From contig CAZUVH010000003.1 of NCBI GenBank assembly GCA_964623775.1, positions 5,739 to 69,738 on the forward strand: a stretch of DNA of 64,000 bases. The letters are read 5' to 3'. The translations under genes were made by a program, and so were the position numbers. A model generated the notes under the pieces. That model had not been told where the DNA came from. It did no database searches and saw nothing but the letters and a program-made list of their open reading frames with translations. Source of the DNA: an uncultured Candidatus Saccharibacteria bacterium. GTDB lineage: Bacteria > Patescibacteriota > Minisyncoccia > Phycocordibacterales > UBA2100. Positions 6,098 to 45,795 of the stretch are shown piece after piece. Every line of letters begins with the position of its first letter. Positions within the stretch are counted from its first letter, which is position 1.

Positions 6098-7936
6098 ATG
6101 ATCTTACTCCTGATTTCCTTCATTGCGGGCGTGCTCTCCGTCCTTGCGCCGTGCGTCCTGCCGCTTTTGCCGGTGATCGTGGGGCAATCGGTTACAGGTG
6201 AGCGGAGTCCGCGTCGTGCGATCGTAATCGTGGTCTCGCTCGGCCTCTCGATCGTTCTCTTCACACTGCTCCTCAAGGCGAGCACTGTGTTCATCAATGT
6301 TCCACCGAGCTTTTGGCTCTGGTTTTCCGGCGGTATTTTGATCACTTTTGGTATCGTGATGATGTTTCCGCGTCTCTGGGATTCTCTTGGAATCGTCGCT
6401 CTCGTCAATCGTAGTTCGAATCAGCTGCTCGCGACGGGATATCAGAAAAATTCTTTCTGGGGAGATGTCATTATGGGTGCGGCGCTTGGGCCTGTCTTTT
6501 CGAGTTGTAGCCCGACGTACTTCGTCGTACTTGCGACTGTTCTTCCCGCGTCATTTGCGATGGGGTTGCTCGATCTGATCGCATACGCAATTGGTCTTTC
6601 CGGATTTCTTCTCATTATCGCGCTCCTCGGGCAGCGGCTTGTCGACAAACTTGGGGTAACCATCGAGCCAACTGGATGGTTCCGCCGAGCGATTGGCATA
6701 CTATTTGTCGCGGTAGGTGTCGCTATACTGACCGGATTTGAGAAAAAGGCGGAAATATGGCTCCTCGATCATGGATTCGATATCACAAAAATTGAGCAAC
6801 GGCTCCTGGAAGCAAATCCTCCGAGAAACGAATCGCAAATGTGTGCAGCCGGTTTTTGCCCCGGCCAGGTAAGTGTCACAGAGCTTGCTACTACGACCGA
6901 GGAGATCATTGCCCCCGGGAAAGCTGTTGCCGACGCGAAAATCGCAATACAGGTCACAAAGAAAGCGGCGATGTACGCAAAGGCACCTGAGCTCGTCATG
7001 CCAAACGCTTATATAAATACAGACGGGAAACCAATCACGATTGGCGAATTTCTCGGCAAGAAAGTCGTGCTCATTGATATCTGGACATACAGCTGCATCA
7101 ACTGCCAGCGCACGCTCCCGTATCTCAAGGCATGGCATCAAAAGTACAAAGACCAAGGTCTCGTCATTATCGGCGTACACACACCAGAATTTGCATTCGA
7201 AAAGGTGCAGAAGAACGTGCAGGATGCGGCGATGGGTTTTGGACTCACATATCCGATCGTGCTCGACAATGAGTACAAGACCTGGAACGCATTTGGTAAC
7301 AATTACTGGCCGCGCAAATATCTTATCGATATCGACGGCTATATCGTGTATGACCACGCGGGAGAAGGGCAGTATGAGGAGGCGGAGGAGGCGATTCAGG
7401 CGGCGCTCGCCGAGCGTGCGAAGCGCCTCGGGGCCACTGATATGGCTGATGTAGGCATTACCGCACCGAGCGACGCTGTGGCCGTGCAGTACGGATTGGT
7501 CGGAAGTCCTGAGACGTACTTCGGCGCATGGCGGAATGATAATTTTGGAAACGGTACGCCAGGTCAAATAGGAATCCAGACGCTCACGCTTCCGCAATCA
7601 CTCGCACCCAATGCCTTTTATCTTGATGGTACCTGGAGTTTTGAGCGGGAATATGTGCAAAACGTCACACAGTCGGCGAAACTGCATTTCCGATACCAGT
7701 CAAAAGACGTGTACTTTGTCGCGAGCGCCGACAAGCCGGTCAGAATCAAAGTCACACGCGACGGCGGAAAATCGCTCGGTGCCGCACGAGGCGCGGATGT
7801 CGATCAAAATGGCTACGCGACGATCAATGAGGATCGACTTTACAAATTGATCGAAGATTCCGCGTATGGCGCGCACACGCTCGAGATAGAGGTGGAAGGG
7901 CAGGGGCTCAAAGCCTATACATTTACCTTTGGCTAA
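6098..7936 (+). CDS. DipZ-like thiol:disulfide interchange protein (CcdA/DsbD transmembrane domain fused to a TlpA/redoxin domain)
   Basis: 612 aa. N-terminal CcdA-like 6-TM domain with …LAPCVLPLLP… and a second Cys region (…FSSCSPT…). Then thioredoxin-like …IDIWTYSCINCQRTLPYL…GVHTPEF… and a C-terminal beta-rich domain. Confidence 0.85.
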   Translation: MILLLISFIAGVLSVLAPCVLPLLPVIVGQSVTGERSPRRAIVIVVSLGLSIVLFTLLLKASTVFINVPPSFWLWFSGGILITFGIVMMFPRLWDSLGIVALVNRSSNQLLATGYQKNSFWGDVIMGAALGPVFSSCSPTYFVVLATVLPASFAMGLLDLIAYAIGLSGFLLIIALLGQRLVDKLGVTIEPTGWFRRAIGILFVAVGVAILTGFEKKAEIWLLDHGFDITKIEQRLLEANPPRNESQMCAAGFCPGQVSVTELATTTEEIIAPGKAVADAKIAIQVTKKAAMYAKAPELVMPNAYINTDGKPITIGEFLGKKVVLIDIWTYSCINCQRTLPYLKAWHQKYKDQGLVIIGVHTPEFAFEKVQKNVQDAAMGFGLTYPIVLDNEYKTWNAFGNNYWPRKYLIDIDGYIVYDHAGEGQYEEAEEAIQAALAERAKRLGATDMADVGITAPSDAVAVQYGLVGSPETYFGAWRNDNFGNGTPGQIGIQTLTLPQSLAPNAFYLDGTWSFEREYVQNVTQSAKLHFRYQSKDVYFVASADKPVRIKVTRDGGKSLGAARGADVDQNGYATINEDRLYKLIEDSAYGAHTLEIEVEGQGLKAYTFTFG

Positions 7937-8901: not shown

Positions 8902-11900
8902 ATGGATATATCTGTACCTAGAAGCGTTTCTCTTATTTTTAACAAATTGGCTGCAGGCACCGTTGTGCTCGCAATGGTCGTCAGCATGTTCCCAGCCGGT
9001 CTCACCGGTTTTAATTTTGCGTCGGCGGACGACAGTGGTTTTCTTTCACCCACGGTCAAGGATGTGAATCATGACGAATGGAGTAATGCAGACCGTGCAT
9101 TCAGTAGCAACAATAATTACTCAACGGAAACCGACGAGGATGATGACCAGAGCTTTGAAAGTTTCGGTTTCTCGGTGCCATCAGCATCGACAATCAATGG
9201 AGTCGAGGTGAGCATCGAGGGCTTCACTGCTGACCCTTCCGGTTGTCAGGCTGAGGTGCGAATGTGGTCAGACAGCGATAATGAGCATTCTGACTACCGC
9301 ACGCAGTCTGTCACGGACACTGAGGGGACGTATGTCCTCGGCGGGTCATCTGACTTGTGGGGTTCTACATGGATACCATCAGACTTCAGCAACGCGGACT
9401 TCCACGTGGAAATTCGATTTGATGATGTAGGAAGTGGTACCTGTGATGACATAGATGTTGAAAATGGTGGCATCGACATCAACCACAGCGGCAGTGTCAG
9501 CAGTTCTGATGATGGCTCCCTGGGCGGGAAGACCATAATTGACGGACGAGTTGATTGGGATAACAACGGTGTCGTAAATGGCAGCGATGATTCCTCTGCA
9601 AATGCGTTCCTTGGCAAAACGATCATCGATGGATGGGTAGACTTCAATGGCAGTGGAACGATTAGTGGTAGTGGAAGCAGTGACGACGGCGAGCTTGTGA
9701 ATAACACGTTCTCGCTCGATCACATCCAAGTGAAAGTCCATTACACTCCAGATGCATGCAATGATGTGTTCACGTACGAAAAGGAGAGCGACTACAGCGA
9801 TGCTCGCGTGGCCATCGACTTCCATGGCTTTGGTGGTAATGAAATTGACGTGTCGGCGCAAACTGGTTACGAAATTCAGGAAGTTTGGCTGGATGTCGAA
9901 GGTGATGGCGAATCAGGTTACTACCTCTATGCAACGGGCCCCGTAGACGACTTCAATCCACCAGGTGGCGAGATTGACGAAGCAAAAATCATAGTCAAAA
10001 AGACCTGCAACGGTGTATTGGAGGTGAAGAAAGTAATTGTCGGCGGTCATGATGGAGATGACGCAGAAGACTTCTCCTTCACGGTTGCGACAAATGACAG
10101 CGTTACGGTCCCGCAGAGTTTCGAAGCGGACGGCCAGAATGATCTCTCACTCGCTCCTGACACCTACACTGTCACAGAAACCGCAGCGGCGGGATGGGTC
10201 ACTACATACGAAAATTGCTCCGACGTTTCTCTCGCACTTGGTGAGACAGAGACCTGTACCATAACCAACACAAGACTCGGCTCGATCACAATTGTGAAGG
10301 AGACGGTGCCCGGCGAAGTAGATCAAGACTTCGTCTTCACGACGAGCGAAGGTCTCGCGGAGGGGAATCAGTTCACCCTCAATACATCCGAGGAAAGCCA
10401 GGTTACATTCAGCGGACTCGAGGCCGGTGAGTATTCGATTACGGAAACGGAAGTTCCCGGCTATGTTCTCACGAATGTGAGCTGTGTAGCAGATGGTGCG
10501 GAATACATTGTTGAAGACAATATGGTATCGATCGGTCTCAGTAACACCACTGATGTAGTGTGTACTTTCACCAATAAGCGACTTCCGATGCTGACGGTCT
10601 ACAAATATGCTTCTCCGCTCGACACGTCCTTCGACATTACGGTAGAGAATACTACGCTCGCGACGAGCAGCATCTTTACAGCTGATGTCGCAGGTGATGG
10701 TGAGGCAAACAGCGGTAATACGTATCATTACGTTGCGCTTGGCGACTACACTCTCACAGAAACACTTCCTGAGGGCTGGGGTGCAAATGGTACAGGCGGT
10801 GTCTCGAGCTCTGTCTGCTACAAGAATGGTGATGCGTCGGATATGGACGACACATCGATCAGCACATCTCTCGCGTATGGCGACGTAGTCAACTGTATCT
10901 TCAACAACACCCCGAATTCAATCCTTGCCGGAGACAAATTCGAGGATATGGATGGTAAGGGCGAAAGCACGGAAGGGGATGGTCTCAGCGGATGGACCAT
11001 TAGACTCTTTGAGTGGGATGGTGACAGTTGGGATTTTGAGGACGACACAACGACGGATGCAGGAGGCATGTTCAACTTCGGCAACATTCAGCCTGGCAAA
11101 TACCTCCTTTGCGAACAAGAACAGAGCAGTTGGTACCAATCAGTACCGTCTGACAGCACCACCCCGCCCGCAGGCGCTGTGGTCACGAGCTGCATCAATG
11201 ACGTGACTTGGGGTTCGGCCAAGGGTTACAGAATCGAAATCGTTGATGTGCCGGTCGCAACCACGACGGCAACTGTCGACGATCAGGAGGTGGTGATTGC
11301 AGAGCCGCTCGAGGGTGACGACGAATTTCCGGGCCAGGTATTCGATGGCTTCCGTTTTGGTAACTACCAGAAAGGATCCATCGGTGGCATAAAGTGGAAC
11401 GACGAAGACTCGAACGGTGTTCTCTGCACGGAGGAGATGGATGCAAATGATGAATGCACAGAAGAACAGGCTCCAGACAACAAGTGGTACATCGCTTACT
11501 CGGGTCCTTACAACAATGGCGGTGAATGGACCTCTGCAGGCACCTTCTCGTTCACCAATCTCGAGCCGGGCACATACACCTTGAGCGAATCCATGCAATC
11601 AGGGTGGGCACAGACGTACCCATACCTTTCGACGGGAAATCAGACGCATACCGTGGTCGTGCAATCAGGCGATCACAAGGTTCGCAATTTCGGCAACGTC
11701 GGTGACTCAACCATTTCAGGTGAGAAATGGAATGATGTCGACGGAGATGGGGTGAAAGACGAAGGCGAAACTACACCGGGCACTTCGTTCACATTCGAGC
11801 TGTACAAGATAGTCGGTGAGACATCAACACTGGTCACTACGCAGAGTGATAACGACGGATACACTTTCAGTGGCCTGCTCTCGGGTACCTACATGGTATG

Positions 11901-13299
11901 TGAGGTTGAAACTTCCGGCTGGGAACAGACATACCCCGCAGATGATGGTTGCCATACGGTGACCGTGGGTATTGATCAAGACTCGACCGACAATGACTTC
12001 GGCAACATTGAGGTGGTCGACATCTCTGGTATGAAGTACCACGACAAGAACAGAAACGGCGTCAAAGATGAAGGTGAGTTCGGCCTCTCGGGCTGGACCA
12101 TCACGGCGACTCCGATCGTAGATTCGTGCAACGACGGATGCTGGGAGGAGGACACAGACAATATGAAGACGACAACGACAGATAGTGACGGCAACTACGT
12201 CTTCCATATCAAAAACAGCGAGACAGGAACGTGGCGAATTGCGGAAGTAAATCAATCCGCATGGACACAGACCGCGCCCACAGATCCGAGCTACTACGAC
12301 ACTCAGGTCTCGATCGGTGATCCATCCACAGGAAATAACTTCGGCAATTGGAAGTGGCCGGTCATACAGGTATACAAGTGGACCGATCTCAACTCGAACG
12401 GCACTCAAGACGAGGGTGAGGGGCCAGTCGCTGGTTACCCGATCGCAGTTGGCCAGATCACAGGCAGTGAAGGAGGTGAGGAAGGCGCCGACGCTCTCAA
12501 TGTGGAAATTATCACCACTGAGCTCACCGGCTCCGATGGCTTTGCTAATATCGCTCTCAATCCCGCTTGGTTCGAGGACGGCCTCACGCAAAGTGAGTTG
12601 AACAATCTCGTTGTGTTTGAGGGTCAGCAGAGCAATTGGACGAAGACCTTCCCGAATTTCACGCACAATGACACGATCAATATCACCTGGCGCGACGGCC
12701 TCATTCCAATCACACTTCTCACAGACTCATTCTTCGATGTCTTCACAGAGGGCATATTCTCTGGCGGCGGCACTGCAACAGCAGGTCTTCAACACGACAC
12801 GTACTCACCTGAGACTTCACTCAAGTTTGGCAACCACTACACCGAGCCGGTGACGGAGACGCCGTCGACCCCGACGAATGGCGGTGGTGGGGGTGGCGGC
12901 AACGGCCCGATCGCGGGATCTCTCCCGGCTGGTCAGGTACTTGGCGCATTCGCAAGTTCGAATGGCCAAGTGCTCGGTGAATCTGCGTGCAGTGCAGTAC
13001 TCCTCACCGACTTCATGCGCCGCGGCAAGAAGAATGATCCAGAACAGGTGAAGCTCCTGCAGGAATTCCTCAACAAGGAAATGGGCCTCAACCTCCCAGT
13101 TACAGGCTTCTTTGGACCGTTGACCGAGAATGCGGTCAAGAGCTTCCAGATCAAGTACGCGGCTGACATCCTGACGCCATGGAATCTGTCGGAACCGACC
13201 GGATTCGTGTACCTCACGACGCTCCGCAAGATCAATCAGATCCACTGCGAAGCGCTCAATATCCCGATGCCTGAGCTCGTTCCATTCAGTGGCGAGTAA
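8902..13299 (+). CDS. giant secreted cell-surface protein with about five Cna-B / SdrD-B-like (prealbumin-fold) repeats and a C-terminal peptidoglycan-binding (PG_binding_1-like) domain
   Basis: Signal peptide MDISVPRSVSLIFNKLAAGTVVLAMVVSMFPAGLTGFNFASA|DD. Repeated (K/E)(F/W/Y)xDxDG/NxNGxxDxGE…G(W/F)T…(Y/W)xQTxP units (e.g. ISGEKWNDVDGDGVKDEGE…SGWEQTYPA). Poly-Gly linker GGGGGGG, then …VKLLQEFLNKEMGLNLPVTGFFGPLTENAVKSFQ… Start set at 8902; the ORF extends to 8803 without a signal-like sequence. Confidence 0.75.
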   Translation: MDISVPRSVSLIFNKLAAGTVVLAMVVSMFPAGLTGFNFASADDSGFLSPTVKDVNHDEWSNADRAFSSNNNYSTETDEDDDQSFESFGFSVPSASTINGVEVSIEGFTADPSGCQAEVRMWSDSDNEHSDYRTQSVTDTEGTYVLGGSSDLWGSTWIPSDFSNADFHVEIRFDDVGSGTCDDIDVENGGIDINHSGSVSSSDDGSLGGKTIIDGRVDWDNNGVVNGSDDSSANAFLGKTIIDGWVDFNGSGTISGSGSSDDGELVNNTFSLDHIQVKVHYTPDACNDVFTYEKESDYSDARVAIDFHGFGGNEIDVSAQTGYEIQEVWLDVEGDGESGYYLYATGPVDDFNPPGGEIDEAKIIVKKTCNGVLEVKKVIVGGHDGDDAEDFSFTVATNDSVTVPQSFEADGQNDLSLAPDTYTVTETAAAGWVTTYENCSDVSLALGETETCTITNTRLGSITIVKETVPGEVDQDFVFTTSEGLAEGNQFTLNTSEESQVTFSGLEAGEYSITETEVPGYVLTNVSCVADGAEYIVEDNMVSIGLSNTTDVVCTFTNKRLPMLTVYKYASPLDTSFDITVENTTLATSSIFTADVAGDGEANSGNTYHYVALGDYTLTETLPEGWGANGTGGVSSSVCYKNGDASDMDDTSISTSLAYGDVVNCIFNNTPNSILAGDKFEDMDGKGESTEGDGLSGWTIRLFEWDGDSWDFEDDTTTDAGGMFNFGNIQPGKYLLCEQEQSSWYQSVPSDSTTPPAGAVVTSCINDVTWGSAKGYRIEIVDVPVATTTATVDDQEVVIAEPLEGDDEFPGQVFDGFRFGNYQKGSIGGIKWNDEDSNGVLCTEEMDANDECTEEQAPDNKWYIAYSGPYNNGGEWTSAGTFSFTNLEPGTYTLSESMQSGWAQTYPYLSTGNQTHTVVVQSGDHKVRNFGNVGDSTISGEKWNDVDGDGVKDEGETTPGTSFTFELYKIVGETSTLVTTQSDNDGYTFSGLLSGTYMVCEVETSGWEQTYPADDGCHTVTVGIDQDSTDNDFGNIEVVDISGMKYHDKNRNGVKDEGEFGLSGWTITATPIVDSCNDGCWEEDTDNMKTTTTDSDGNYVFHIKNSETGTWRIAEVNQSAWTQTAPTDPSYYDTQVSIGDPSTGNNFGNWKWPVIQVYKWTDLNSNGTQDEGEGPVAGYPIAVGQITGSEGGEEGADALNVEIITTELTGSDGFANIALNPAWFEDGLTQSELNNLVVFEGQQSNWTKTFPNFTHNDTINITWRDGLIPITLLTDSFFDVFTEGIFSGGGTATAGLQHDTYSPETSLKFGNHYTEPVTETPSTPTNGGGGGGGNGPIAGSLPAGQVLGAFASSNGQVLGESACSAVLLTDFMRRGKKNDPEQVKLLQEFLNKEMGLNLPVTGFFGPLTENAVKSFQIKYAADILTPWNLSEPTGFVYLTTLRKINQIHCEALNIPMPELVPFSGE
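10925..12700 (+). repeat. about five tandem ~330-bp coding repeats (Cna-B/SdrD-B-like modules) inside the surface-protein gene
   Basis: Protein-level periodicity beginning DKFEDMDG…, GSIGGIKWNDEDSNG…, ISGEKWNDVDGDG…, ISGMKYHDKNRNG…, IQVYKWTDLNSNG…. Confidence 0.6.
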
Positions 13300-13320
13300 A
13301 TAAAGCCCGTTTACCAGAAG

Positions 13321-13346
13321 CAAACCCCGCCTCTTGGCGGGGTTTG
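13321..13346 (+). terminator. terminator hairpin caaaccccgcc-tctt-ggcggggtttg
   Basis: Perfect 11-bp stem 20 nt after the stop of the giant gene, followed by cgttataaaag. Confidence 0.6.
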
Positions 13347-13374
13347 CGTTATAAAAGTGTGCGAGAATGAATAC

Positions 13375-13773
13375 ATGCGTCCCGTAGCCACCGCTCTTGC
13401 ATCCGGGTTTATCCTCATAGCAATGAGCGTCACCCCTGCACTCGCTGACACCTCATTTTTCGTCGGTGACCGTGTCACCGTTACTTCCGGGCCTTTGAAT
13501 GTACGTATGTCGCCCTCGATATACGATGCCCCATACGGCACACAAAAAGAGGGGAATCGCGGCGTCATCTTCCAGGGTCCTGTCGAAAAGGATGGTTATA
13601 CCTGGTGGTTTATCGATTATGACAGCGGGGTGGATGGATGGAGCGTACAGAATTATCTGGGCAGCGCTCATGTGCAAAGTACGCAGACGGCTGCCGCGAA
13701 TACGCAGATTCAGGCACTCTACTGGCAGCTCAAAAATATCCTCATTGTGTTGCAGCAACTGAAAACGCAGTAA
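13375..13773 (+). CDS. secreted SH3b-like domain protein
   Basis: Signal peptide (…LIAMSVTPALA|DT). …GDRVTVTSGPLNVRMSPS…GTQKEGNRGVIFQGPVEKDGYTWWFIDYDSGVDGW resembles bacterial SH3 domains. Confidence 0.5.
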   Translation: MRPVATALASGFILIAMSVTPALADTSFFVGDRVTVTSGPLNVRMSPSIYDAPYGTQKEGNRGVIFQGPVEKDGYTWWFIDYDSGVDGWSVQNYLGSAHVQSTQTAAANTQIQALYWQLKNILIVLQQLKTQ

Positions 13774-13874
13774 GCATTTTGTGTACTTAAAACCACCTAT
13801 AGATAAAGATAGGTACAAATAGAAAGAGTTGAATAGTGGATAATTGACGGGAGATTTCGTGCGACAATGAATCC

Positions 13875-14876
13875 ATGAGTCGGAAGAGGGGCTTTTTTAG
13901 CAGCAAGAAAGTGAAGAGGGAATTCGAGCTGCTCGGGGGCGTATCGGCGACAGCGGCCTCGCTTCTCGTCGTTTCCATTTTTCTTCTCACGTCGCTCGAC
14001 AAGATCCTCATTACCTCCAATCAGTACGCATCCGTCATTGCGGCGGTCTTGGTAGATCTCACAAATGGCGATCGTAATGCGAGCAACATCCACGGTCTCA
14101 CGATCAATCCCGTACTCGTCGCGGTCGCGCAGGCCAAGGCGGATGACATGGCTGCAAAAGGCTATTTCTCGCACGTGTCGCCCGAGGGCAAAGACCCATG
14201 GCATTGGTTTAAGCTCGTCGGTTACAAATTCACGTACGCGGGAGAGAATCTCGCCGTTGACTTTTCGGACTCTGCTGATGTGCAGCGAGCATGGATGAAT
14301 TCGCCGACGCATCGCAAGAATCTGCTCGATCCGCGCTTTACCGAAATAGGGATCGCGACAGCTGCTGGCTTCTATCAGGGCCACCCCACCATCTTTGTCG
14401 TCCAGGCATTCGGCGCCCCTGCAGCATCAGCAAGCGAGCCAACCGTCGCATCCAATGTACCGGACGATCCGGGCACGCTTGCCGTGGCAGAAGTAATGCC
14501 CACGGCGCCCACACAAGTCTTGGGCGAAACAACCGACTCTAATGTGGTAAAGCCGACGATGGAAGTGCGACCAATTACAGCTGGGGAGGTGGTAGTTGTG
14601 CCCCAGCACTCGGCTTGGTACGACCGCCTCGCGTCCTCACCGCGCAATTTCGTGTACATCACATACTATGTCATCGCGGCGCTCATCATCCTCTCGCTCT
14701 TGATCGAGACGGGTCTCCAGATACGCCTGCATCATGAGAAAAAGGCAGTTACGGCGGGCCTCATGCTCGCGCTCGTCCTCGGTTTTGTCTTCGTGACCAA
14801 TGTGTACCTCTTCCCGCACCCTGTACTTGTCTCCGAAAACGCGGTGCAGATGGCAGCTGCTGCAGCCGCGCTCTAG
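13875..14876 (+). CDS. CAP (SCP/PR-1, YkwD-like) domain protein with an N-terminal TM anchor and a C-terminal membrane segment
   Basis: …GYFSHVSPEGKDPWHWF…AGENLAVDFSDSADVQRAWMNSPTHRKNLLDPRFTEIGIA… matches CAP-domain signatures. Confidence 0.75.
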   Translation: MSRKRGFFSSKKVKREFELLGGVSATAASLLVVSIFLLTSLDKILITSNQYASVIAAVLVDLTNGDRNASNIHGLTINPVLVAVAQAKADDMAAKGYFSHVSPEGKDPWHWFKLVGYKFTYAGENLAVDFSDSADVQRAWMNSPTHRKNLLDPRFTEIGIATAAGFYQGHPTIFVVQAFGAPAASASEPTVASNVPDDPGTLAVAEVMPTAPTQVLGETTDSNVVKPTMEVRPITAGEVVVVPQHSAWYDRLASSPRNFVYITYYVIAALIILSLLIETGLQIRLHHEKKAVTAGLMLALVLGFVFVTNVYLFPHPVLVSENAVQMAAAAAAL

Positions 14877-14892
14877 TATTGATGCACGCAAC

Positions 14893-14916
14893 AAAACCCC
14901 GCTTTCGCGGGGTTTT
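14893..14916. terminator. bidirectional terminator hairpin aaaaccccgc-tttc-gcggggtttt
   Basis: Perfect 10-bp stem with A/T tracts between convergent genes. Confidence 0.65.
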
Positions 14917-14931
14917 GTTACGCGAGTTTTT

Positions 14932-15438
14932 TTAATTGCCGAATTTGAATGCTCCGAAGATGCGTGCCCAGAAGCCAAGACCCTGAGATTTAGAAGTGCT
15001 CGCCGCTGCCGACGCGCTACCCTTGGCTGTCAGCTCGTTTCTGAGGTCACCAACAGTTGTAGAAGCGGGGAGTCCGAAGAAAAAGCTGAGGAATGAGCGG
15101 ATACCGCCTCTGCCCCATCCCTTACCTTCATCATCCGTCGTTGTCGACTTTTCGCCGCGGTTTTCTTTTTGTTTTGAATCCTGGCGGCGGTCGGCGTCCT
15201 CCCGCTTGTCTGCGACACTGTCATTATCGTCGTCTGAGTCGCGGTATTCGCCCTTAATTTGCTGAATTTTCACATCAAGCTTGCCATCGGCATCGATATC
15301 GCCGATCTGCGCGCGATGCTCGAGTGAAGCATCCGCACCCATTTCTACCCCCAATCCTCCGCGATTGTTATCTGCAAGCGCGAGTGTCGGAAGAGCTAAT
15401 AATGCGGTCATAAGACCAATAGTCACTTCTTTCTTCAT
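14932..15438 (-). CDS. secreted acidic low-complexity protein (hypothetical)
   Basis: Start taken at MKKEVTIGLMTALLALPTLALA (signal peptide). D/E/K-rich, then Ser/Ala-rich tail. Confidence 0.4.
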   Translation of the reverse strand: MKKEVTIGLMTALLALPTLALADNNRGGLGVEMGADASLEHRAQIGDIDADGKLDVKIQQIKGEYRDSDDDNDSVADKREDADRRQDSKQKENRGEKSTTTDDEGKGWGRGGIRSFLSFFFGLPASTTVGDLRNELTAKGSASAAASTSKSQGLGFWARIFGAFKFGN

Positions 15439-15687
15439 ATGTATTAGCGTAACACCAAAGTAGGGGAGTAATGTCAATACTGTTAATAGTGTGCTGCTGA
15501 CCCTCATACCCCAGCCGGTGCCGCTCTCATGAAGACGAGTTCAAAATGAGTTCCTTACAGTACTGATTTTAAGCCATATTTTACTGCTATAATCCACTTC
15601 ATGGTGACCGTAAGAATGATGAAGTACGGTCGTCTATATAAAGGGTCTGAAATTAATAGGTTATAAAAAAATTAACATTAGATATAT

Positions 15688-17352
15688 ATGACAGTATTTA
15701 AGAAAATGACCGCTGGAGTATTGGCGGCAGGCATTATGGTGCCGTCTCTCGCTTTTGCGCAGACGTCGACAAGTTCGACCCTCACGGCGCTTTTGGCGCA
15801 GATCAAAGCCTTAACGGCCCAGATTGAGGCTCTCAAACAGCAGCAGTCGACGTTGCAGGGCCAAATCAAGACGGTAAAAGAAGATGCGCGCGCGGCAGTG
15901 AAAGAACTTCGTGGCCAGATAAGGTGCGGAGCGAGCGGCGAAGATGTCGCGCTTCTCCAAACGATCCTCGCATCTGATCCGTCGATCTTCCCGGAAGGCA
16001 TAATCAATGGCTTCTACGGCAAAAAGACGAGCGAGGCAGTTAAGCGCTTCCAGCGCATGACCGGTCTCACGCCGACAGGCTGCGTCGGTCCGCAGACCAT
16101 GAACGCACTCAACAACTTCCTGAAGAAGCACCCGATCATAGTGCAAGACGGCACCGTCTGTGCGCTTGTATTGAATGGCGAAAAGCCGAAAGGCTGGGAG
16201 CGCAAGCTTGATCGTGAACGCGAGAAAATGGGTATGAGCTCCATCCCGACGTGCACGGGCGGCATTCCTCAGTCGATTCTCAATGCTTTCGGTATCAGTT
16301 CGACGACACCGTTTGTCCCGGGCAATACCGGTGTGACACAAGATGAAACGATTCCGGGAAGCGGCAAGATCACGATGTGCCACAAGCCAGGTCACAACAA
16401 AGTGACGATCTATGTCAGCTCGTCTGCTTTTGGCGCGCATATCGCGCATGGTGATCGCCTTGGTGCGTGCGATGGCAGTACTGCCACGACCACGACCGAC
16501 ACTATCGCGCCGACGATCAGTGGCGTGAGCTCGACCAACGTCACAACTACAGGTGTTACCGTTACCTGGACGACCAACGAGGCTGCCACCACGCAGGTTG
16601 AGTATGGCACTACGGCTTCGTACGGTTCGACGACTTCGCTCGATAGTACGAAGGTTACGAATCACAGCGCGGCGATCTCCGGACTCTCAAATGGTACGAC
16701 CTATCACTTCCGCGTGATTTCGAAAGACGCGGCAGGGAATACGGCAACTTCTGGCGATATGACATTCACGACAGGTACGGTCGACACGACCGCCCCGTCG
16801 CTCTCAGCGATCACATCGACCAACCTGACAATGACCGGCGCCACAATCACGTGGACGACCAATGAGAACTCAACGAGTCAGGTGGAATACGGCACGACGG
16901 CTTCGTATGGAAATACGACCACCCTCGACACTGCGCTCGTAACAGGGCACAGCGTCAACCTTACCGGCCTCACGACCGGTACCACATACCACTTCCGCGT
17001 CATTTCGAAAGACGCTGCGAACAATGTGGCGACCTCCGGCGACATGACGTTTGTGACGACAGCCGACACCACCGCGCCAGTTATCTCCGGCGTCTCGGTC
17101 TCGCCGATCAGTGCAAGCAGCGCGTCGATCTCGTGGACGACCAATGAATCAGCTACGACCAAGGTGTACTACGACACCGTAGCCATCACGTCTGGTTCGC
17201 AGTTTGCGGTTGCCGCAGGCGCAGGCACGTCGCACATGGTTGGTCTCACCGGCCTCAGTGCGTCGACGACGTACTACTATGTCCTCGAATCGAAAGACGA
17301 TCAGAACAACACCGCGACGACGACCCAGTCGAGCTTCGCGACGACCAACTAA
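15688..17352 (+). CDS. secreted protein: coiled-coil region, peptidoglycan-binding (PG_binding_1-like) domain, then three FN3-like repeats
   Basis: Signal peptide …PSLAFA|QT. …GASGEDVALLQTILAS…NGFYGKKTSEAVKRFQRMTGLTPTGCVGPQTMNAL… is PGBD-like. Three ~90-aa repeats TTAPxISxxSSTNxTxTGxTxTWTTNExxTxQVEYGTTASYG…TTYHFRVISKDAAxNxATSGDMTFxT. Confidence 0.7.
   Translation: MTVFKKMTAGVLAAGIMVPSLAFAQTSTSSTLTALLAQIKALTAQIEALKQQQSTLQGQIKTVKEDARAAVKELRGQIRCGASGEDVALLQTILASDPSIFPEGIINGFYGKKTSEAVKRFQRMTGLTPTGCVGPQTMNALNNFLKKHPIIVQDGTVCALVLNGEKPKGWERKLDREREKMGMSSIPTCTGGIPQSILNAFGISSTTPFVPGNTGVTQDETIPGSGKITMCHKPGHNKVTIYVSSSAFGAHIAHGDRLGACDGSTATTTTDTIAPTISGVSSTNVTTTGVTVTWTTNEAATTQVEYGTTASYGSTTSLDSTKVTNHSAAISGLSNGTTYHFRVISKDAAGNTATSGDMTFTTGTVDTTAPSLSAITSTNLTMTGATITWTTNENSTSQVEYGTTASYGNTTTLDTALVTGHSVNLTGLTTGTTYHFRVISKDAANNVATSGDMTFVTTADTTAPVISGVSVSPISASSASISWTTNESATTKVYYDTVAITSGSQFAVAAGAGTSHMVGLTGLSASTTYYYVLESKDDQNNTATTTQSSFATTN
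16496..17340 (+). repeat. three tandem ~280-bp DNA repeats encoding FN3-like modules
   Basis: Near-identical stretches (e.g. ggcacgacggcttcgtatgg…accacataccacttccgcgtcatttcgaaagacgc) recur with a period of about 280 bp. Confidence 0.7.
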
Positions 17353-17382
17353 CCTACAGAGTGATCACTGGAGGCTTATGCA

Positions 17383-17408
17383 AACACCCCGGCACATGCC
17401 GGGGTGTT
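17383..17408 (+). terminator. terminator hairpin aacaccccggc-acat-gccggggtgtt plus TTTT
   Basis: Perfect 11-bp stem directly after the 15688..17352 stop. Confidence 0.7.
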
Positions 17409-17429
17409 TTGCTGATATATAATGACGAT

Positions 17430-19004
17430 ATGAAAAATATTACCCACGTTCTGTTCGTGTTGTTTGTGTTTGCGATATTTTCCCTCCCCGCATCAGCGTA
17501 TGCAGTGTCTGCATCGATCCAAGAAATTTCTCCCGGGACGAGCGTACTGCCGAAAAATAAATTTACGTTCAAAATCGTTCCGTCTGGATTTATGGCGCAA
17601 TCGTACCAACTAACGGATTCGTTCCCCGGGACGACACTTACGGTCAACAACATCGACCAAGCTGGCCGCTTATTCTGGGTACCGCTCCCGAGTGATGTGG
17701 GGACGCACAATCTCACTATCACGGCGCAAGATTTCAACGGCAATAGCGCGATTGTCACACAGACCGTTACGATCTTGCCACCCCCCTCCGTCTCTATTCA
17801 GTCGGTTTCGCCTGACCTCAAAATCATGCCTGGTACGACGCTTACATTCCAAGTTGTTGCGACCGGTTTTACGAACCCGAGATTCACGGTGAGCGATTCT
17901 GTGAGCGGCTCGGGTATTGCCAATGTTACGATCGGCTCATCAGGCGCATTCTCATGGACGCCCGCTCCCGCTGACGACGGGGAGCACAGGATAACTGTCT
18001 ACGCCAATGATTCAAGCGGCAGCAGTGCTTCTGCAAGCATCGATGTCGTAGTCGGCACCGGTCCGAGCATTGTGATCAATGGGATGTCGCCGGGCCCTTC
18101 AGTGACGCTCGGTCAAACGCTCACGTTTACGGCATCGCCGGTGCAATTTTCTCCGAATGCATTTTCAGTGACTGACACATTTTCAGGGACAACTGTTTCC
18201 AACGGCAACATCAATATCTCGGGTCAGTTTTCCTGGACTCCGTCAGGGATCGACGCGGGGACGCATACGCTTACAGTGACGGGGACGGTCGGGTTCTATG
18301 GCAAAAGTGCATCGGTGAAACAGGTGGTACATGTCCTTCGGCCCGGCGAGACGGCGCCAATACAGACTGTTGCTGCCACAAGCACTGCGCCCACAACAGC
18401 AATTGCCGCAAGCGATACTGCCGTGACCGCTCTTCAAAAACAGATTGCCGAACTCACTGCAAAAATCGCCGCTCAAAAAGGCGCATCTGTCTCCACCCCC
18501 GCGGCGACACCCGCACCCGTATCTGCAAACGGCTCATTCACGACCTACCTCTATCAAGGTATGGAGGGGGAAGAGGTGACTCGGTTGCAGAAAGTGCTGG
18601 CGCAGCAGGGCTTTTTCAGCGCAGAACCAAATGGCACCTTTGGACCGCTCACGGTGGCCGCGGTGAAGAAATTCCAGGCAGCGCAGGGTCTCAGCACGCT
18701 TGGGGTCGTGGGTCCGGCCACTCGCGCAGCGCTCAATGCACTCTCGAATTCTTCGGCGACACCGAAGGGTGTTGAAAATTCTGCCAGCAAATATGTATTT
18801 GAAAAGTTCCTCTCACGGGGCGATGAGAATACGGATGTTACGGAGCTTCAGAAGCGCCTCAAGGCACTTGGCTTTTTCACGGGCGAAGCATCGGGGTACT
18901 TTGGTCCAGCCACCTACGCGGCAGTCATAAAATTCCAGGTGGCAAATGGTCTTGACCCGAAAGGACATGTAGGGCCTGGCACGCGCGCTGCGCTCAATAA
19001 GTAA
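17430..19004 (+). CDS. secreted protein with three Ig-like repeats and two C-terminal peptidoglycan-binding (PG_binding_1-like) domains
   Basis: Signal peptide MKNITHVLFVLFVFAIFSLPASAYA. Three ~95-aa repeats (…FSWTPxxxDxGxHxLTVTA/G…). Two PGBD-like segments (…VTRLQKVLAQQGFFSAEPNGTFGPLTVAAVKKFQAAQGL… and …VTELQKRLKALGFFTGEASGYFGPATYAAVIKFQVANGL…). Confidence 0.7.
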   Translation: MKNITHVLFVLFVFAIFSLPASAYAVSASIQEISPGTSVLPKNKFTFKIVPSGFMAQSYQLTDSFPGTTLTVNNIDQAGRLFWVPLPSDVGTHNLTITAQDFNGNSAIVTQTVTILPPPSVSIQSVSPDLKIMPGTTLTFQVVATGFTNPRFTVSDSVSGSGIANVTIGSSGAFSWTPAPADDGEHRITVYANDSSGSSASASIDVVVGTGPSIVINGMSPGPSVTLGQTLTFTASPVQFSPNAFSVTDTFSGTTVSNGNINISGQFSWTPSGIDAGTHTLTVTGTVGFYGKSASVKQVVHVLRPGETAPIQTVAATSTAPTTAIAASDTAVTALQKQIAELTAKIAAQKGASVSTPAATPAPVSANGSFTTYLYQGMEGEEVTRLQKVLAQQGFFSAEPNGTFGPLTVAAVKKFQAAQGLSTLGVVGPATRAALNALSNSSATPKGVENSASKYVFEKFLSRGDENTDVTELQKRLKALGFFTGEASGYFGPATYAAVIKFQVANGLDPKGHVGPGTRAALNK

Positions 19005-19072
19005 TCAGCGCGCCACGTGTCCACAAAAAAATCAATTTGACCGGAGGTGGGGAGTGCTACAATCCGGACACT

Positions 19073-19948
19073 ATGTTTAAGGAGGGGGCACTCGACACGA
19101 GAACGTCGGTTCTCATTGGCGGAGTTTTGGCTACTTCTGTATTTCTTGCGAATCCTAGTGTCTACAAAATCGGTACTACTCTTCCAAATTTCCATTTCTC
19201 GACCACCGCGTCGCACGAGAGCGCTGTCACGGTGCAGCTCGGGCCCTCGACGCTTCAAATCTCAGTCCCAGCTCCTCATGTATCGCAATCTCAAGTTGCA
19301 TCTGTCGCACTTCCAGCAGATGGGCCAATCATTTATGATCCTGCGTCTGCGTCGATTACAATGGCAACTCCGCAGCTGATCGAGACGACAATCGTTGGGG
19401 CATCCATGCAGAGCGCTTCGGACGTCGCCCCTATTTCAGCCAGCGTCGCAACTCCTGCGATCTCCGAGACAATCGCTCCGGCCGTACCCGAGACTCCTGT
19501 GCCGGCAATTTCAGTACCAGTCCCGATCGAATCGGTGCAGGTACAAGCGCCAGTTCAAGAAAGTGCCACGCCATCGGTACCAGCAGATACAGTAATCGAA
19601 AATACCGCAGTAGAAAGTGCCGTGTCCGCTCCTGCAGCCGCTGAACCGGTTGTTACCCCTGTCGCAGAATCTGTCCAAGAAGTAGAAACGCCCGCCGTGA
19701 CAACCCCTGTTGAAGAAATTCCAACCGCATCGGAGACTCCCGTAGAGGCACCAGCAGCTATTCCAGTACTTCCAGTCGAAGAATGCCACCCGAGCTATAT
19801 CCCGTGTTTGCGCATTGATGCGAGTGATTATGATTGCGAAGGAGGTACAGGAAACGGCCCATACTACACAGGTAAGGTGCAGGTAATCGGTCCCGACGTG
19901 TTCGGGCTTGATAAAAATGGCGACGGGTGGGGATGCGAGGCGAGCTAA
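19073..19948 (+). CDS. secreted/anchored protein with a Pro/Ala/Val/Glu-rich linker and a C-terminal Excalibur (extracellular Ca-binding) domain
   Basis: C-terminal …CLRIDASDYDCEGGTGNGPYYTGKVQVIGPDVFGLDKNGDGWGCE contains the DxDxDGxxCE Excalibur signature. N-terminal hydrophobic anchor. Confidence 0.6.
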   Translation: MFKEGALDTRTSVLIGGVLATSVFLANPSVYKIGTTLPNFHFSTTASHESAVTVQLGPSTLQISVPAPHVSQSQVASVALPADGPIIYDPASASITMATPQLIETTIVGASMQSASDVAPISASVATPAISETIAPAVPETPVPAISVPVPIESVQVQAPVQESATPSVPADTVIENTAVESAVSAPAAAEPVVTPVAESVQEVETPAVTTPVEEIPTASETPVEAPAAIPVLPVEECHPSYIPCLRIDASDYDCEGGTGNGPYYTGKVQVIGPDVFGLDKNGDGWGCEAS

Positions 19949-20828: not shown

Positions 20829-22049
20829 ATGAAGACACGGATTTTGATGTTTGGTTGGGAATTTCCGCCGTTCCATAGCGGGGGTTTGGGTGTCGCCTGT
20901 CTCGGGCTTACGCGATCACTTTCCCGATTGGGGACGGAGGTGATTTTCGTCATGCCCAAGAAGCTCGATGTGCGATCTCCGTACGCCAAGATCGTCTTTG
21001 CCGACCGCGGTATCAAGGTAGTGACCCATGCAATCAATTCTCTGATTACCCCATACGTCACCGCCAAATCGTATTTGAAAAATCGCAGTGCTGCCGAGGC
21101 AATCTATGGCAAGGATCTCTACAGTGAGGTCATGCGCTATGCCGCGATGGGCGGCGTCATCGCCGAGGAAGAGGAATTTGATGTCATTTATGCACACGAC
21201 TGGCTCTCTTTTGGCGCTGGAATGGAAGCGAAGAAGGCGACTGGTAAGCCGCTCATCGTACATGTGCATGCTACTGAATTCGACCGCTGCGGCGGTGCCT
21301 GGGGGGTCAATCACGATGTATATGAGGTGGAAAAAGCGGGCATGGAAGCAGCCGATGTCGTGATCGCGGTATCGGAACTGACAAAAAATATCTTGGTCCA
21401 AAACTACGGAATTCCAGCGAGTAAAATTCGCGTTGTCTACAACGGTATCGACGAAACGACAGCCACTACGGAGGGGCAGGGCTTACCGCGACTGCGCCAG
21501 CTGAAAAATGCCGGCTTCAAACTCGTCTTGTTCCTCGGGCGTGTCACACTTCAGAAGGGTCCGGATTATTTCATTCGTGCCGCAAAGCGGGTGCTCGAAG
21601 TGAATCCCAAAGTCTTCTTTATCCTCTCCGGATCCGGTGATATGGAAAAAAGTGTGATGGAGCTCGCGGCACGCCTTGGCGTCTCCGATCGGATGTTCTT
21701 CACGGGGCATCTCGAGGGTGCAGAGAAACACGAGGTCTATAGGGTTGCCGATCTTTTCGTGATGCCCTCCGTCTCCGAGCCTTTTGGCATCACCCCGCTT
21801 GAGGCAATGAAGATTGGTACGCCTGTGCTCATCTCAAAACAATCTGGCGTATCGGAAGTCGTGAAAAATGCGCTCAAGGCTGATTTCTGGGACATCGATG
21901 ATATGGCCAACAAAATCCTCTCGGTCGTAAAATATCCAGGACTCGGTAGTGCGCTTTCTGAAAATGGCGCAGTGGAGGCCAATAAGCTCACGTGGAATCA
22001 GGCCGCCGAAAAGGTAGATAGTATCGTACAGACACTCGTGAAGACATAG
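20829..22049 (+). CDS. glycosyltransferase family 4 (glycogen/alpha-glucan synthase-like)
   Basis: 406 aa. N-terminal …FGWEFPPFHSGGLGVACLGL… and C-terminal GT-B Rossmann region (…FLGRVTLQKGPDYF…FVMPSVSEPFGITPLEAM…). Confidence 0.8.
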   Translation: MKTRILMFGWEFPPFHSGGLGVACLGLTRSLSRLGTEVIFVMPKKLDVRSPYAKIVFADRGIKVVTHAINSLITPYVTAKSYLKNRSAAEAIYGKDLYSEVMRYAAMGGVIAEEEEFDVIYAHDWLSFGAGMEAKKATGKPLIVHVHATEFDRCGGAWGVNHDVYEVEKAGMEAADVVIAVSELTKNILVQNYGIPASKIRVVYNGIDETTATTEGQGLPRLRQLKNAGFKLVLFLGRVTLQKGPDYFIRAAKRVLEVNPKVFFILSGSGDMEKSVMELAARLGVSDRMFFTGHLEGAEKHEVYRVADLFVMPSVSEPFGITPLEAMKIGTPVLISKQSGVSEVVKNALKADFWDIDDMANKILSVVKYPGLGSALSENGAVEANKLTWNQAAEKVDSIVQTLVKT

Positions 22050-22134
22050 AGGACTTTATCCACGTAATTGCTGAAGGAGGAAGTGTAAACATGCACTAGA
22101 ATAGAGGTACGTCGCAGTGCGGCGTTTTTCTGCC

Positions 22135-23355
22135 ATGAAATCGATCTGCTTTTATTTTCAAGTTCACCAACCGTATCGCGTCAAGCATTATCGTGTCTTT
22201 GATATCGGCAATGACCCCGAGTATTTCAATGACCGCGGCGAGCGCGATGTAAATAATAGACGCGTCATCGAGAAGGTGGCGCGCAAATCATACATTCCTG
22301 CGACCAAGCTCATTCTCCACCTTCTCAAAAAGCATCCAAGTTTCCGGGTCTCGTATTCATTTTCGGGTGTTGCTCTTGAACAAATGGAACAATACGTACC
22401 GGAAGTCATCGACCTTTTCAGGCAGGTGATCCAGACAGGGCAGGCAGAAGTCTTGGGCGAGACATACTACCATTCGCTCGCATTTTTCTATTCACCGGCA
22501 GAATTCGAGCGACAGGTCGCAAAGCATCGTGAAGTTGTTCGCAGGCTTTTTGGTGTGTGGCCACGCGTCTTCCGCAACACCGAGCTCTCGTACCGAAACG
22601 ATCTTGGCACTTGGGCCGATCAAAACGGCTACGCGGGTGTAATTGCGGAAGGTTGGGATCCGATACTTGGCTGGCGCAGTCCAAATTATGTCTACAAGCC
22701 AAAAGGCGCACAAAACGCGCGCCTCCTTCTCAAGAATTACAAGCTCTCCGATGACGTCGCGTTCCGCTTTTCCTCGAAGCAGTGGACGGAGTGGCCGCTC
22801 ACGACAGAAAAGTACGGCCAATGGCTCGGCGAAGCGGAGGGTGACACGGTGAATCTTTTTATGGACTACGAGACCTTCGGCGAACACCAGTGGGAAGACA
22901 CCGGCATTTTTCATTTCTTGGAGAAATTGCCTGAAGAAATGGCAAAAAATCCGGGGATCGATTTCAAGACACCTTCTGAAGTCATTGCAAACTACGATCC
23001 GCGCGATGAGGTGGACATCCCGCACATTCTCACGTGGGCAGATACCGACCGTGATCTCACTGCCTGGGTAGGGAATCCGATGCAAAATGCCGCGATTGAA
23101 AATATTTATGCGATGGAGAATGACATTCATCTTGTAAACGACGCGAAGCTCATGGAGGATTGGCGCAAATTGCAGACTTCCGACCACTTCTACTACATGT
23201 GTACGAAATGGTCCAACGACGGCGATGTCCACGCCTATTTCTCACCGTACGAATCTCCGTACGAAGCCTACATTGCTTACATGAACGCGCTCACGGACCT
23301 CAGATTGCGCGTCAACAAACGCCTTCCCGCTCCAGTACAGGTCGGGCAGGGCTGA
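22135..23355 (+). CDS. glycoside hydrolase family 57 (alpha-amylase / 4-alpha-glucanotransferase-like)
   Basis: N-terminal …ICFYFQVHQPYR (GH57 HQP motif); …GVWPRVFRNTELSY… (GxWxxE nucleophile region); 3' neighbour of GT4 as in archaeal and CPR glucan clusters. Confidence 0.8.
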   Translation: MKSICFYFQVHQPYRVKHYRVFDIGNDPEYFNDRGERDVNNRRVIEKVARKSYIPATKLILHLLKKHPSFRVSYSFSGVALEQMEQYVPEVIDLFRQVIQTGQAEVLGETYYHSLAFFYSPAEFERQVAKHREVVRRLFGVWPRVFRNTELSYRNDLGTWADQNGYAGVIAEGWDPILGWRSPNYVYKPKGAQNARLLLKNYKLSDDVAFRFSSKQWTEWPLTTEKYGQWLGEAEGDTVNLFMDYETFGEHQWEDTGIFHFLEKLPEEMAKNPGIDFKTPSEVIANYDPRDEVDIPHILTWADTDRDLTAWVGNPMQNAAIENIYAMENDIHLVNDAKLMEDWRKLQTSDHFYYMCTKWSNDGDVHAYFSPYESPYEAYIAYMNALTDLRLRVNKRLPAPVQVGQG

Positions 23356-23358
23356 TCT

Positions 23359-25344: not shown

Positions 25345-25467
25345 ACTGCCCCAGGACTCACCGTGTTCTAAATATGGCCCTAAACAAGGATTTTCTGAGC
25401 ATTGACTATACTACTAATTAATAGTATAATTGCACAAGTACATTCAACCGCTGCCTTGGAGGGCACG

Positions 25468-25911: not shown

Positions 25912-25920
25912 AGTCCTTTA

Positions 25921-25960
25921 GAAGCCTGTACTGGTCCAAACCCAGTCCAGGCTTCTTTTA
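25921..25960 (+). terminator. terminator hairpin gaagcctg…caggcttc plus TTTTATTT
   Basis: Seen directly after the GNAT stop. Confidence 0.5.
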
Positions 25961-25981
25961 TTTGATACAATAAGCTTCATT

Positions 25982-26953: not shown

Positions 26954-26959
26954 AATTGC

Positions 26960-44389: not shown

Positions 44390-44476
44390 AAAATTTACAA
44401 TTTACAATTTTCAATCAATTTCCAATGATAAATTTTCATTTGAAAATTAAAAATTGAGAATTGAAAATTCATATTT
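44390..44476. repeat. 87-bp strongly AT-rich repetitive intergenic island (ACAATTT / TTGAAAATT-type direct repeats) inside the GC-rich EPS operon
   Basis: aaatttacaatttacaattttcaatcaatttccaatgataaattttcatttgaaaattaaaaattgagaattgaaaattcat. Confidence 0.6.
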
Positions 44477-45793: not shown

Positions 45794-45795
45794 AT

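Follow-up and report, generated by a model that had tools for sequence, protein, structure and literature searches.

Fibrillar adhesins of Gram-positive bacteria, of the SdrD/Cna (MSCRAMM) type, combine a signal peptide, an N-terminal ligand domain, a stalk of B-type, prealbumin-fold calcium-binding repeats, a flexible linker that spans the wall and a C-terminal anchor for the cell wall. The sorting signal of such sortase substrates comprises a motif, a domain that is hydrophobic and a tail with positive charge (PMC4155245). For non-covalent attachment, PG_binding_1 (PF01471) is a listed class of cell-wall-binding domain (PMC5817068) and stands on the published anchor list for fibrillar adhesin-like proteins (PMC8286594). 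Here, we analyzed a stretch of 64,000 nucleotides (contig CAZUVH010000003.1 of assembly GCA_964623775.1, positions 5,739–69,738; termed the window, with coordinates counted from its first letter) and within it a cluster of surface-protein genes at 8902–19948. Gene A of this cluster encodes a large protein with the same layout as SdrD/Cna adhesins, including a putative ligand domain at the amino terminus. Unlike them, its predicted anchor has the PG_binding_1 fold and would be non-covalent, it lacks a sortase signal and a hydrophobic tail, no sortase was found in the window, and its tip domain has no Pfam family. A neighboring gene, C, encodes a membrane protein with a CAP domain. Judged by sequence, the region is a cell-envelope gene neighborhood of a Parcubacteria (Paceibacterota, Kaiserbacteria-like) bacterium.

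Further described systems resemble single parts of this locus. The PG_binding_1 domains of SleB, SleC, CtpB and the Zn DD-peptidase share the helical fold and the core motif with the C-terminal module of protein A, whereas the A-type module adds a PWxLxxPTG insertion and two invariant cysteines, sits at the carboxy terminus behind a poly-Gly stretch and a GxVLG motif, and is combined with adhesin repeats, not hydrolases. The C. difficile adhesins CD2831 and CD3246 likewise have a CnaB stalk, clustered short linker motifs upstream of the anchor and an adjacent partner gene, encoding ZmpI (PPEP-1) (PMC4591827); there, however, the motif is Pro-rich, the anchor sortase-dependent and the partner a proven zinc protease, in contrast to GxVLG, a PG-binding domain and a CAP membrane neighbor here. 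Gene C has the CAP domain and the conserved His/Glu of the YkwD family and of DalA, a CAP-domain protein that binds peptidoglycan non-covalently (PMC10470522), but differs from both in its sub-cut-off scores, its topology (one transmembrane (TM) segment, CAP domain, long linker, two TM segments), its lineage and its linkage to surface-protein genes. In the type IX secretion system (T9SS) with its C-terminal domain (CTD) and PorU, and in the LapA–LapG system, one terminal domain is likewise found on many unrelated large surface proteins together with dedicated envelope partners, although these are diderm systems with other folds and machinery.

The Parcubacteria and related groups are ultra-small monoderm bacteria with peptidoglycan, for the most part not yet cultivated and in many cases episymbiotic, and to our knowledge there is hardly any account of how they build and hold their surface proteins. 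In the literature, which our search covered incompletely, we found no description of the A-type module, of its pairing with a CAP protein, or of CAP or PG_binding_1 domains in Patescibacteria. Protein A itself is of a known type; new here are the extended module, its VLG motif and the CAP linkage, as a variant of non-covalent wall anchoring.

The C-terminal module of protein A

Gene A (8902–13299, + strand) is an open reading frame (ORF) of 1,465 amino acids (aa), and the identical protein was called in two independent assemblies. With the whole protein as query, Pfam returned SdrD_B (95.3 bits), SpaA (84.2 bits), SpaA_4 (70.7 bits) and PG_binding_1 (27.8 bits; cut-off 23). The C-terminal module (12985–13299, +), an extended PG_binding_1 fold, scored 32.0 bits against the same cut-off when searched as a separate segment, and NCBIfam has no model that covers it. 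Two cysteines (aa 1363 and 1449), invariant in the alignments, bracket the module, which also carries the PWxLxxPTG insertion. The predicted model is a helical domain with a predicted local distance difference test (pLDDT) score of 81–97, and its best matches in the PDB are PG-binding domains, namely 5tv7, the SleB N-domain (TM-score 0.81), SleC, CtpB and 1lbu, with 6tci (TM-score 0.81), 9h68 and 4c2h also among the matches and a best-match probability of 1.0 at a root-mean-square deviation of 2.4 Å.

The original prediction, made from the letters of the stretch alone, had assigned PG_binding_1-type domains to the ~1,470-aa protein and to the FN3-repeat and Ig-like-repeat proteins encoded further downstream by genes E and F. 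All three carry such domains above the Pfam cut-off of 23 (A 27.8/32.0 bits, E 49.1 bits, F 110.6 bits for two copies). The poly-Gly hinge that had been placed between the repeats and the PG-binding domain of A was likewise found. It lies in a linker (12841–12984, +; pLDDT <50) in which the stalk is followed by a Thr/Pro stretch, the segment GGGGGGGNG at aa 1327–1335 (poly-Gly at 12880–12900) and two GQVLG motifs (12931–12951 and 12964–12984), after which the 105-aa module begins.

The original prediction had also stated that none of these proteins has an LPXTG, S-layer-homology (SLH) or lipobox anchor. Pfam found no SLH match in the cluster proteins and no lipobox was seen at any signal peptide, but A does contain a literal LPVTG at aa 1398. 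We do not regard it as a sorting signal, as it is embedded in the core of the PG_binding_1 domain at a distance of 63 aa from the carboxy terminus, no hydrophobic tail follows, and the corresponding position in homologs reads LAVDG, FTPTG, LSVDG or LPQTG. A cryptic sortase signal was rejected on these grounds, the motif being part of a folded domain, not conserved and followed by no hydrophobic window, as none occurs after aa 39. Sortase had no Pfam match among the 47 scanned window proteins and no signature in the credible ORFs of the 64-kb window, where the single TLxTC match lies in a 63-aa ORF.

The module family and its linker motif

The genome scan used a profile from a 4-sequence module alignment, a 10-sequence alignment being too divergent, and yielded 212 loci with an A-type module in GTDB species-representative genomes. 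Among the 80 of these 212 loci that were listed, nearly all are labeled Patescibacteria or plain 'bacterium', with Parcubacteria, Paceibacterota, Kaiser-, Lloyd-, Adler-, Zambryski-, Nomura- and Giovannonibacteria among the labels. One locus labeled Gammaproteobacteria (L050) and one labeled Kapabacteria (L055) have a Parcubacteria-type module on contigs of non-Patescibacteria bins; these are probably mis-binned contigs, not occurrences outside the lineage. When 1.84 billion cluster representatives were searched with a module profile, 910 of them matched at E ≤ 1e-30 and 6,365 at E ≤ 1e-10. In almost all top matches the module stands at the extreme carboxy terminus, on proteins ranging from 190 to 6,588 aa, and PF01471 was matched in 45 of 46 proteins of the family. 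The passengers include SpaA-type, DUF11, Big_9, cadherin-like, Ig-type, VWA, PA14, Rib and MBG domains.

As it ends hundreds of unrelated repeat proteins, the module looks like an anchor or sorting module, and from domain content, fold and family distribution we infer that in A it anchors the protein by binding peptidoglycan. The idea that a PG_binding_1 module serves as the anchor of a large adhesin-like protein is thus in line with the Pfam score, the PG-binding fold and the C-terminal position in many unrelated proteins. That such use is unusual, as had been proposed, was not borne out: PG_binding_1 is already listed in this capacity (PMC8286594, PMC5817068), and the module is a standard Parcubacteria carboxy terminus (212 loci, 910 clusters). 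By the same distribution, the architecture of A is standard in Parcubacteria.

The module is preceded by the motif G-[QES]-V-L-G-[AE]-[SAT]. VLG is present in 75 of 77 module proteins from the loci and in 82 of 86 from an independent sample and is duplicated in 24 of the 77; of 100 copies, 94 have a G at −2. It lies 2–40 aa from the module in a segment modeled as disordered, and this variable distance suggests a linear motif that is not part of the fold. The density of the motif per 1,000 aa was 1.07 in module proteins and 0.235 in CAP proteins vs 0.006 in other ORFs of the loci, an enrichment over background ORFs of ~180-fold for module proteins and ~40-fold for CAP linkers. About half of the CAP proteins, gene C included, carry xVLG[EATS] in the linker before their TM pair. 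Beyond these two groups the motif occurs in a few small proteins (~275 aa) that have poly-Gly and GQVLGTT ahead of a TM segment at the carboxy terminus, such as those at 6247–7071 of locus L066 and at 1945–2766 (− strand) of L074. From its placement in these sequences, VLG is a motif set just outside an anchor. The best reading of the shared ending, consisting of poly-Gly, GxVLG and a Cys-bracketed PG_binding_1 module, is that of a lineage-wide display cassette fused to varied passengers.

The proposed CAP partner

Gene C (13875–14876, +; 333 aa) was identified by its CAP domain, in keeping with the original call (PF00188, 62.5 bits vs a cut-off of 21.1), and by TM prediction. It comprises TM1 (13923–14018), the CAP domain (14052–14408), a linker that contains TQVLGETT (QVLGE, with VLG at 14517–14525), and TM2–TM3 (14643–14831), all on the + strand. 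Its homologs share this topology, with a basic amino terminus, a TM segment, the CAP domain, a linker of 70–100 aa and two TM segments, and conserve a putative His/Glu site. Against the nearest NCBIfam models gene C remained below the cut-offs, with 107.4 vs 171 for YkwD (TIGR02909) and 57.7 vs 200 for DalA (NF052539). The three-TM CAP family comprises more than 1,157 clusters, and its named members are Kaiserbacteria or Parcubacteria.

Gene neighbors were counted at 79 loci that are the best matches to the A module, one locus pair being a duplicate. Of 78 ORFs with a C-terminal module, 52 have a CAP gene directly downstream on their own strand, at most 300 bp away, and 5 more have one within 2.5 kb. 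CAP is the sole widely conserved neighbor (61 loci; the next real gene family reaches 12), and where module genes stand in tandem, a single CAP gene follows them (L008, L009, L019 and L074). Approached from the other side, six loci were seeded with CAP homologs picked irrespective of their neighbors; all six have, on the strand of CAP and no more than 7 kb away, a gene for a PG-binding surface protein, which in two of them stands directly upstream of CAP, and in one of them CAP is flanked on both sides. This linkage points to the three-TM CAP protein as a dedicated partner of module proteins, in a role that we can name only conditionally.

Two kinds of gene were additionally seen near CAP in Kaiserbacteria-like loci. 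A subtilisin-like Peptidase_S8 lies between the module protein and CAP in L084 (4005–5366), L085 (3950–5281) and L089 (5817–6911), and a chitin-synthase-like GT2 stands beside CAP in L084 and L085.

Tip and stalk of protein A

The amino terminus of A is a predicted AxA-type signal peptide (8902–9027, +; aa 1–42; hydrophobic aa 8–39) with cleavage expected at ASA|DDSG. Homologs of A keep the AxA site and, right after it, (A)DTGxxSPT, which forms the first strand of the tip domain. This N-terminal 'tip' (9028–9747, +; aa 43–282) is conserved and without a Pfam match. Its core measures ~155 aa in homologs and is common to the proteins P0009, P0020, P0043 and P0124–126 at 42–63% identity; a homolog search with the tip added 3 new proteins only. 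AlphaFold2 models it as a β-sandwich with pLDDT >90 outside an 84-aa Asp/Gly/Ser-rich insertion (nt ~9445–9708), which has two GKTIIDGxVDxxxxG repeats, lies just before the last strand, is modeled as disordered and is absent from all aligned homologs. In the PDB the tip had only weak fold matches of a generic kind (to CBM4, CBM15 and CBM16, at E about 3e-3), so that glycan binding is only a lead from the model. The ~86 aa between tip and stalk (9748–10005, +) gave no Pfam match by segment, and the C-terminal portion of this stretch is found again inside other module proteins, where it forms an internal repeat.

The stalk domains were delimited by Pfam searches on separate segments. Three SpaA_4-type prealbumin-fold domains (10006–10920, +) scored 24.3, 53.7 and 36.5 bits, the first of which also matches DUF7601 at 28.6 bits. 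They are followed by five SdrD_B/SpaA-type domains (10921–12840, +) with SdrD_B scores of 29.8, 18.7, 35.0, 38.2 and 20.4 bits, three of the five lying above the Pfam cut-off on their own. Each of these five opens with a Ca-loop-like D/N-rich motif, e.g. WNDVDGDGVKDEGE. The 'about five' SdrD-B/Cna-B-like Ca-binding repeats of the original prediction therefore correspond to five SdrD_B-type domains, to which three SpaA_4-type domains are to be added. Self-BLAST of A returned no internal repeats at 1e-3, because the repeats are too divergent. In terms of the published features of fibrillar adhesin-like proteins (PMC8286594), A possesses the stalk domains (three SpaA_4-type and five SdrD_B/SpaA-type) and the anchor (PG_binding_1, 27.8 and 32.0 bits vs 23); for the adhesive domain, it offers an amino terminus without a Pfam match, a β-sandwich model and weak CBM-like matches.

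Further cluster genes and their surroundings

The ORF list gives seven genes in 8902–19948, A, B, C, X, E, F and G, with gene starts taken from independent gene calls on Logan contigs with identical proteins. Six of them are on the + strand, yet they are not consecutive as had been proposed, as the minus-strand gene X (14932–15438) lies between the CAP and FN3 genes. The proposal that all encode signal-peptide proteins was correct for the exported amino termini, a signal peptide or hydrophobic segment being present in 7 of 7, but C is not simply secreted, having an N-terminal TM segment and two C-terminal ones.

Gene B (13375–13773, +; 132 aa; gene call in L002) encodes a secreted protein with the signal peptide site ALA|DT and is inserted between A and CAP. 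Its SH3b likeness is by eye only: Pfam gave no match at E ≤ 10, TIGR04211 matched at E = 0.006 with 16 bits vs 65, and phmmer against the PDB gave E ≥ 0.3. B is absent from the A–CAP position in related loci, where its domain occurs once inside a GH26 protein; a B-like region in L063 is likewise without annotation. The product of gene X (14932–15438, −; 168 aa; gene call in L001, an independent assembly) is secreted and acidic, contains the Ca-loop-like motif DIDADG, is rich in aromatic residues at its carboxy terminus and has no Pfam family; homologs are encoded near CAP in a few close relatives (L003, L067 and L086).

Gene E (15688–17352, +; 554 aa) encodes, in order, a signal peptide, a coiled coil, a PG_binding_1 domain (15934–16110; 49.1 bits), a Cys-rich region and three FN3-type domains (about 16516–17349), which match FN3/Pur_ac_phosph_N in Pfam and bear out the FN3-repeat call. 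Shorter E-like genes with a coiled coil, PG_binding_1 and one FN3 stand beside the module–CAP pair in about 8 loci. Gene F (17430–19004, +; 524 aa; start from the L001 gene call) encodes a signal peptide, three Ig-like repeats, in agreement with the earlier call (Big_13, 32.8 bits), a coiled coil and two canonical PG_binding_1 domains (about 18537–18995; 110.6 bits). Both E and F have canonical PG_binding_1 without the VLG cassette. Gene G (about 19073–19948, +; about 291 aa; from the ORF) encodes an N-terminal hydrophobic segment, a Pro/Ala/Val-rich spacer and a Cys-rich carboxy terminus of ~55 aa ending in DKNGDGWGCE, and no homolog was found in related loci. The Excalibur assignment of G matched nothing in Pfam (E ≤ 10) or the PDB, its DxNxDGxxCE signature being visible by eye only. 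Of the domains originally proposed, Pfam hence recovered SdrD_B/SpaA, PG_binding_1, FN3, Ig-like and CAP, but not SH3b and Excalibur.

The GC content of the cluster (0.50–0.55) equals that of the remaining window. On this flat profile, a compositional island or horizontal transfer was rejected, and the term 'island' is better replaced by gene cluster. Scans of the cluster for promoters and terminators gave no signal above shuffled controls. As to a coherent six-gene toolkit, only A, CAP and E-like genes recur together, whereas B, G and mostly X do not; compared across loci, A and CAP make up the conserved core, at times joined by an E-like gene, and the six-gene set is not a conserved unit.

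Just upstream of A lie a thioredoxin gene (5411–6013) and a DsbD_TM–Redoxin–Thioredoxin_10 fusion (6098–7936), both on the + strand. Trx/DsbD or Trx/DsbB pairs also occur upstream of module proteins in other loci (L086 and L088; about 9 of 85 loci). These genes may serve disulfide formation in the Cys-bracketed modules; as obligate partners they were rejected, being present at only about 9 of 85 loci.

Downstream of the cluster follows a sugar-metabolism block of GT4, GH57, GH15, PGI and ROK genes (20829–27781, +); the gene before it, on the minus strand, is HAD/PMM-like. Synteny with the Kaiserbacteria contigs L084, L085 and L089 extends over the genes downstream of the cluster (HAD-PMM, GT4, GH57, GH15, PGI, ROK, VTT and SHMT) and assists in assigning the window to a lineage. 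A series of minus-strand genes (42821–47226) encodes a polysaccharide deacetylase, a chitin-synthase-like GT2 and a UDP-glucose dehydrogenase and resembles a unit for making exopolysaccharide; a GT2 of this type also stands beside CAP in L084 and L085.

Some 35 kb from the cluster, the window holds two tandem genes for secreted BTLCP cysteine proteases (54950–55606 and 55757–56389, +; Peptidase_C93, E = 1.5e-41 and 4.7e-57), members of the LapG family, which releases giant adhesins in Proteobacteria, a BTLCP protease being the releasing enzyme of the Lap system. As the enzyme that would cut at VLG they were rejected, with no homolog in any related module–CAP locus. Beside the pair stand two tandem hybrid histidine kinase genes (57021–59141 and 59219–61264, −) with MASE1, HisKA, HATPase and receiver domains.

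Discussion

With moderate confidence, we take protein A to be a fibrillar adhesin that anchors itself on the wall of the cell producing it, with a distal tip and with the CAP membrane protein as a dedicated accessory. In the sequence of events that we infer from domain content, fold, family size, gene linkage and motif conservation, every biochemical step is conditional, including peptidoglycan binding, self-anchoring, the orientation of the protein and any role of CAP or of the motif. A would be exported by Sec and its signal peptide cleaved, and the N-terminal β-sandwich would then form the distal tip. The eight prealbumin-fold domains, five of them with Ca-loop-like motifs, would make up the stalk, stiffened by the putative Ca-binding repeats, and a flexible Gly-rich linker would connect the stalk to the module. 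The C-terminal module, probably disulfide-bracketed, would keep A non-covalently on its own cell wall, while the three-TM CAP protein, at the interface of membrane and wall, would install or retain module proteins. E and F may be further wall-bound proteins, held by their canonical PG_binding_1 domains.

Several observations weigh against this account. The Pfam PG_binding_1 match in A spans only profile positions 3–38 of 57, the Foldseek E-values for the module are modest (best 4e-3), and the CBM-like matches of the tip domain are weak. Gene B separates A from CAP in the window, no CAP gene is found near 20 of 78 module ORFs, and Peptidase_S8, with or without GT2, lies between module protein and CAP in 3 of 6 CAP-seeded loci. 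The 79 loci may moreover be enriched for positional orthologs, in which case CAP adjacency could partly reflect inherited synteny. Simple non-covalent anchoring, finally, leaves the conserved VLG motif unexplained. That motif, GxVLG[AE][ST], might itself act as a signal for processing or sorting: at VLG, just outside their anchors, module proteins and CAP too would be cleaved or transpeptidated by CAP or a nearby protease, with the passenger shed in a regulated way or covalently linked to the wall. We rate this possibility, the main rival, as unlikely. It would agree with a near-invariant motif in otherwise disordered low-complexity linkers (75/77 and 82/86), often duplicated (24/77), at 2–40 aa from the module and ~180-fold and ~40-fold enriched in module proteins and CAP linkers, and with its occurrence before the C-terminal TM anchors of the small proteins in L066 and L074. 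The V at −3 and G at −1 conform to small-residue protease rules, the Peptidase_S8 between module protein and CAP in L084, L085 and L089 is a candidate processing protease, and CD2831 provides a precedent, its ZmpI cleavage sites being clustered directly upstream of the anchor and the gene for the protease lying next to its own (PMC4591827). However, no bacterial CAP domain is known to act as a protease or transpeptidase, what comes after the motif is a folded domain of 105 aa where known sortase-type signals have a TM segment and a charged tail, the 64-kb window has no S8 gene, and VLG occurs in only about half of the CAP linkers.

A direction opposite to self-anchoring would be that the PG-binding modules target the wall of a host or prey, so that the PG-binding end is the working end of an attachment or attack factor. 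The lineage is regarded as episymbiotic, and PG_binding_1 is best known from wall-lytic enzymes (SleB, SleC and endolysins). Patescibacteria also highly express extracellular proteins with PG-binding domains, for which host attachment has been proposed (PMC10936435). Yet Pfam detected no hydrolase domain in A, E or F, the conserved tip and variable stalk show the same polarity as C-terminally anchored fibrillar adhesins of Gram-positive bacteria, and the coupling to CAP, a membrane protein of the producer, points to the producer's envelope. The signal-peptidase site of A is conserved and the protein has no further means of retention, and because nothing else would hold it on the producer, a host-directed role is the less likely one for A and appears quite improbable overall. 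We give very little weight to the notion that unrelated secreted proteins are mere chance neighbors and A an ordinary PG_binding_1 repeat protein. The lack of homologs of B and G in related loci and the few of X, the absence of a compositional signature and of promoter or terminator signals above chance, and the canonical PG_binding_1 domains of E and F without the cassette would fit it, but a module–CAP adjacency of 52/78 for one family is far above chance, E-like genes stand beside the pair in about 8 loci, and each of the seven adjacent genes has an exported protein or a membrane protein as its product. Effectively refuted is a sortase substrate or pilin: although A does have a literal LPVTG, pilins assembled by sortase typically contain Cna-B/SpaA domains and some distant homologs have sortase domains by fusion or by annotation (P0081 and P0114), the LPVTG of A belongs to a structured core (L-x-v-D/T-G-x-F-G; pLDDT >90), is not conserved, lies 63 aa from the carboxy terminus with neither hydrophobic segment nor charged tail, and the credible ORFs of the window show no sortase signature.

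Beyond the self-anchored adhesin that we favor for A, Parcubacteria might own a display system in which the C-terminal cassette is the sorting signal for hundreds of different surface proteins and the CAP protein recognizes VLG and installs, cross-links or releases the cargo; we consider this extension doubtful. An epibiotic lifestyle of the lineage is plausible. As originally put, the finding is fairly ordinary, the anchor type being recognized and the architecture common in the lineage. If the cassette and CAP do form a system, the surface proteomes of thousands of such genomes could be listed by a simple rule read from sequence, and the cassette would point to the proteins likeliest to contact hosts. 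Bacterial CAP domains would gain a testable role, which under the display reading would be the first defined molecular role for CAP, and such a display system would be a functional analog of sortase/LPXTG or T9SS-CTD/PorU built from unrelated parts.

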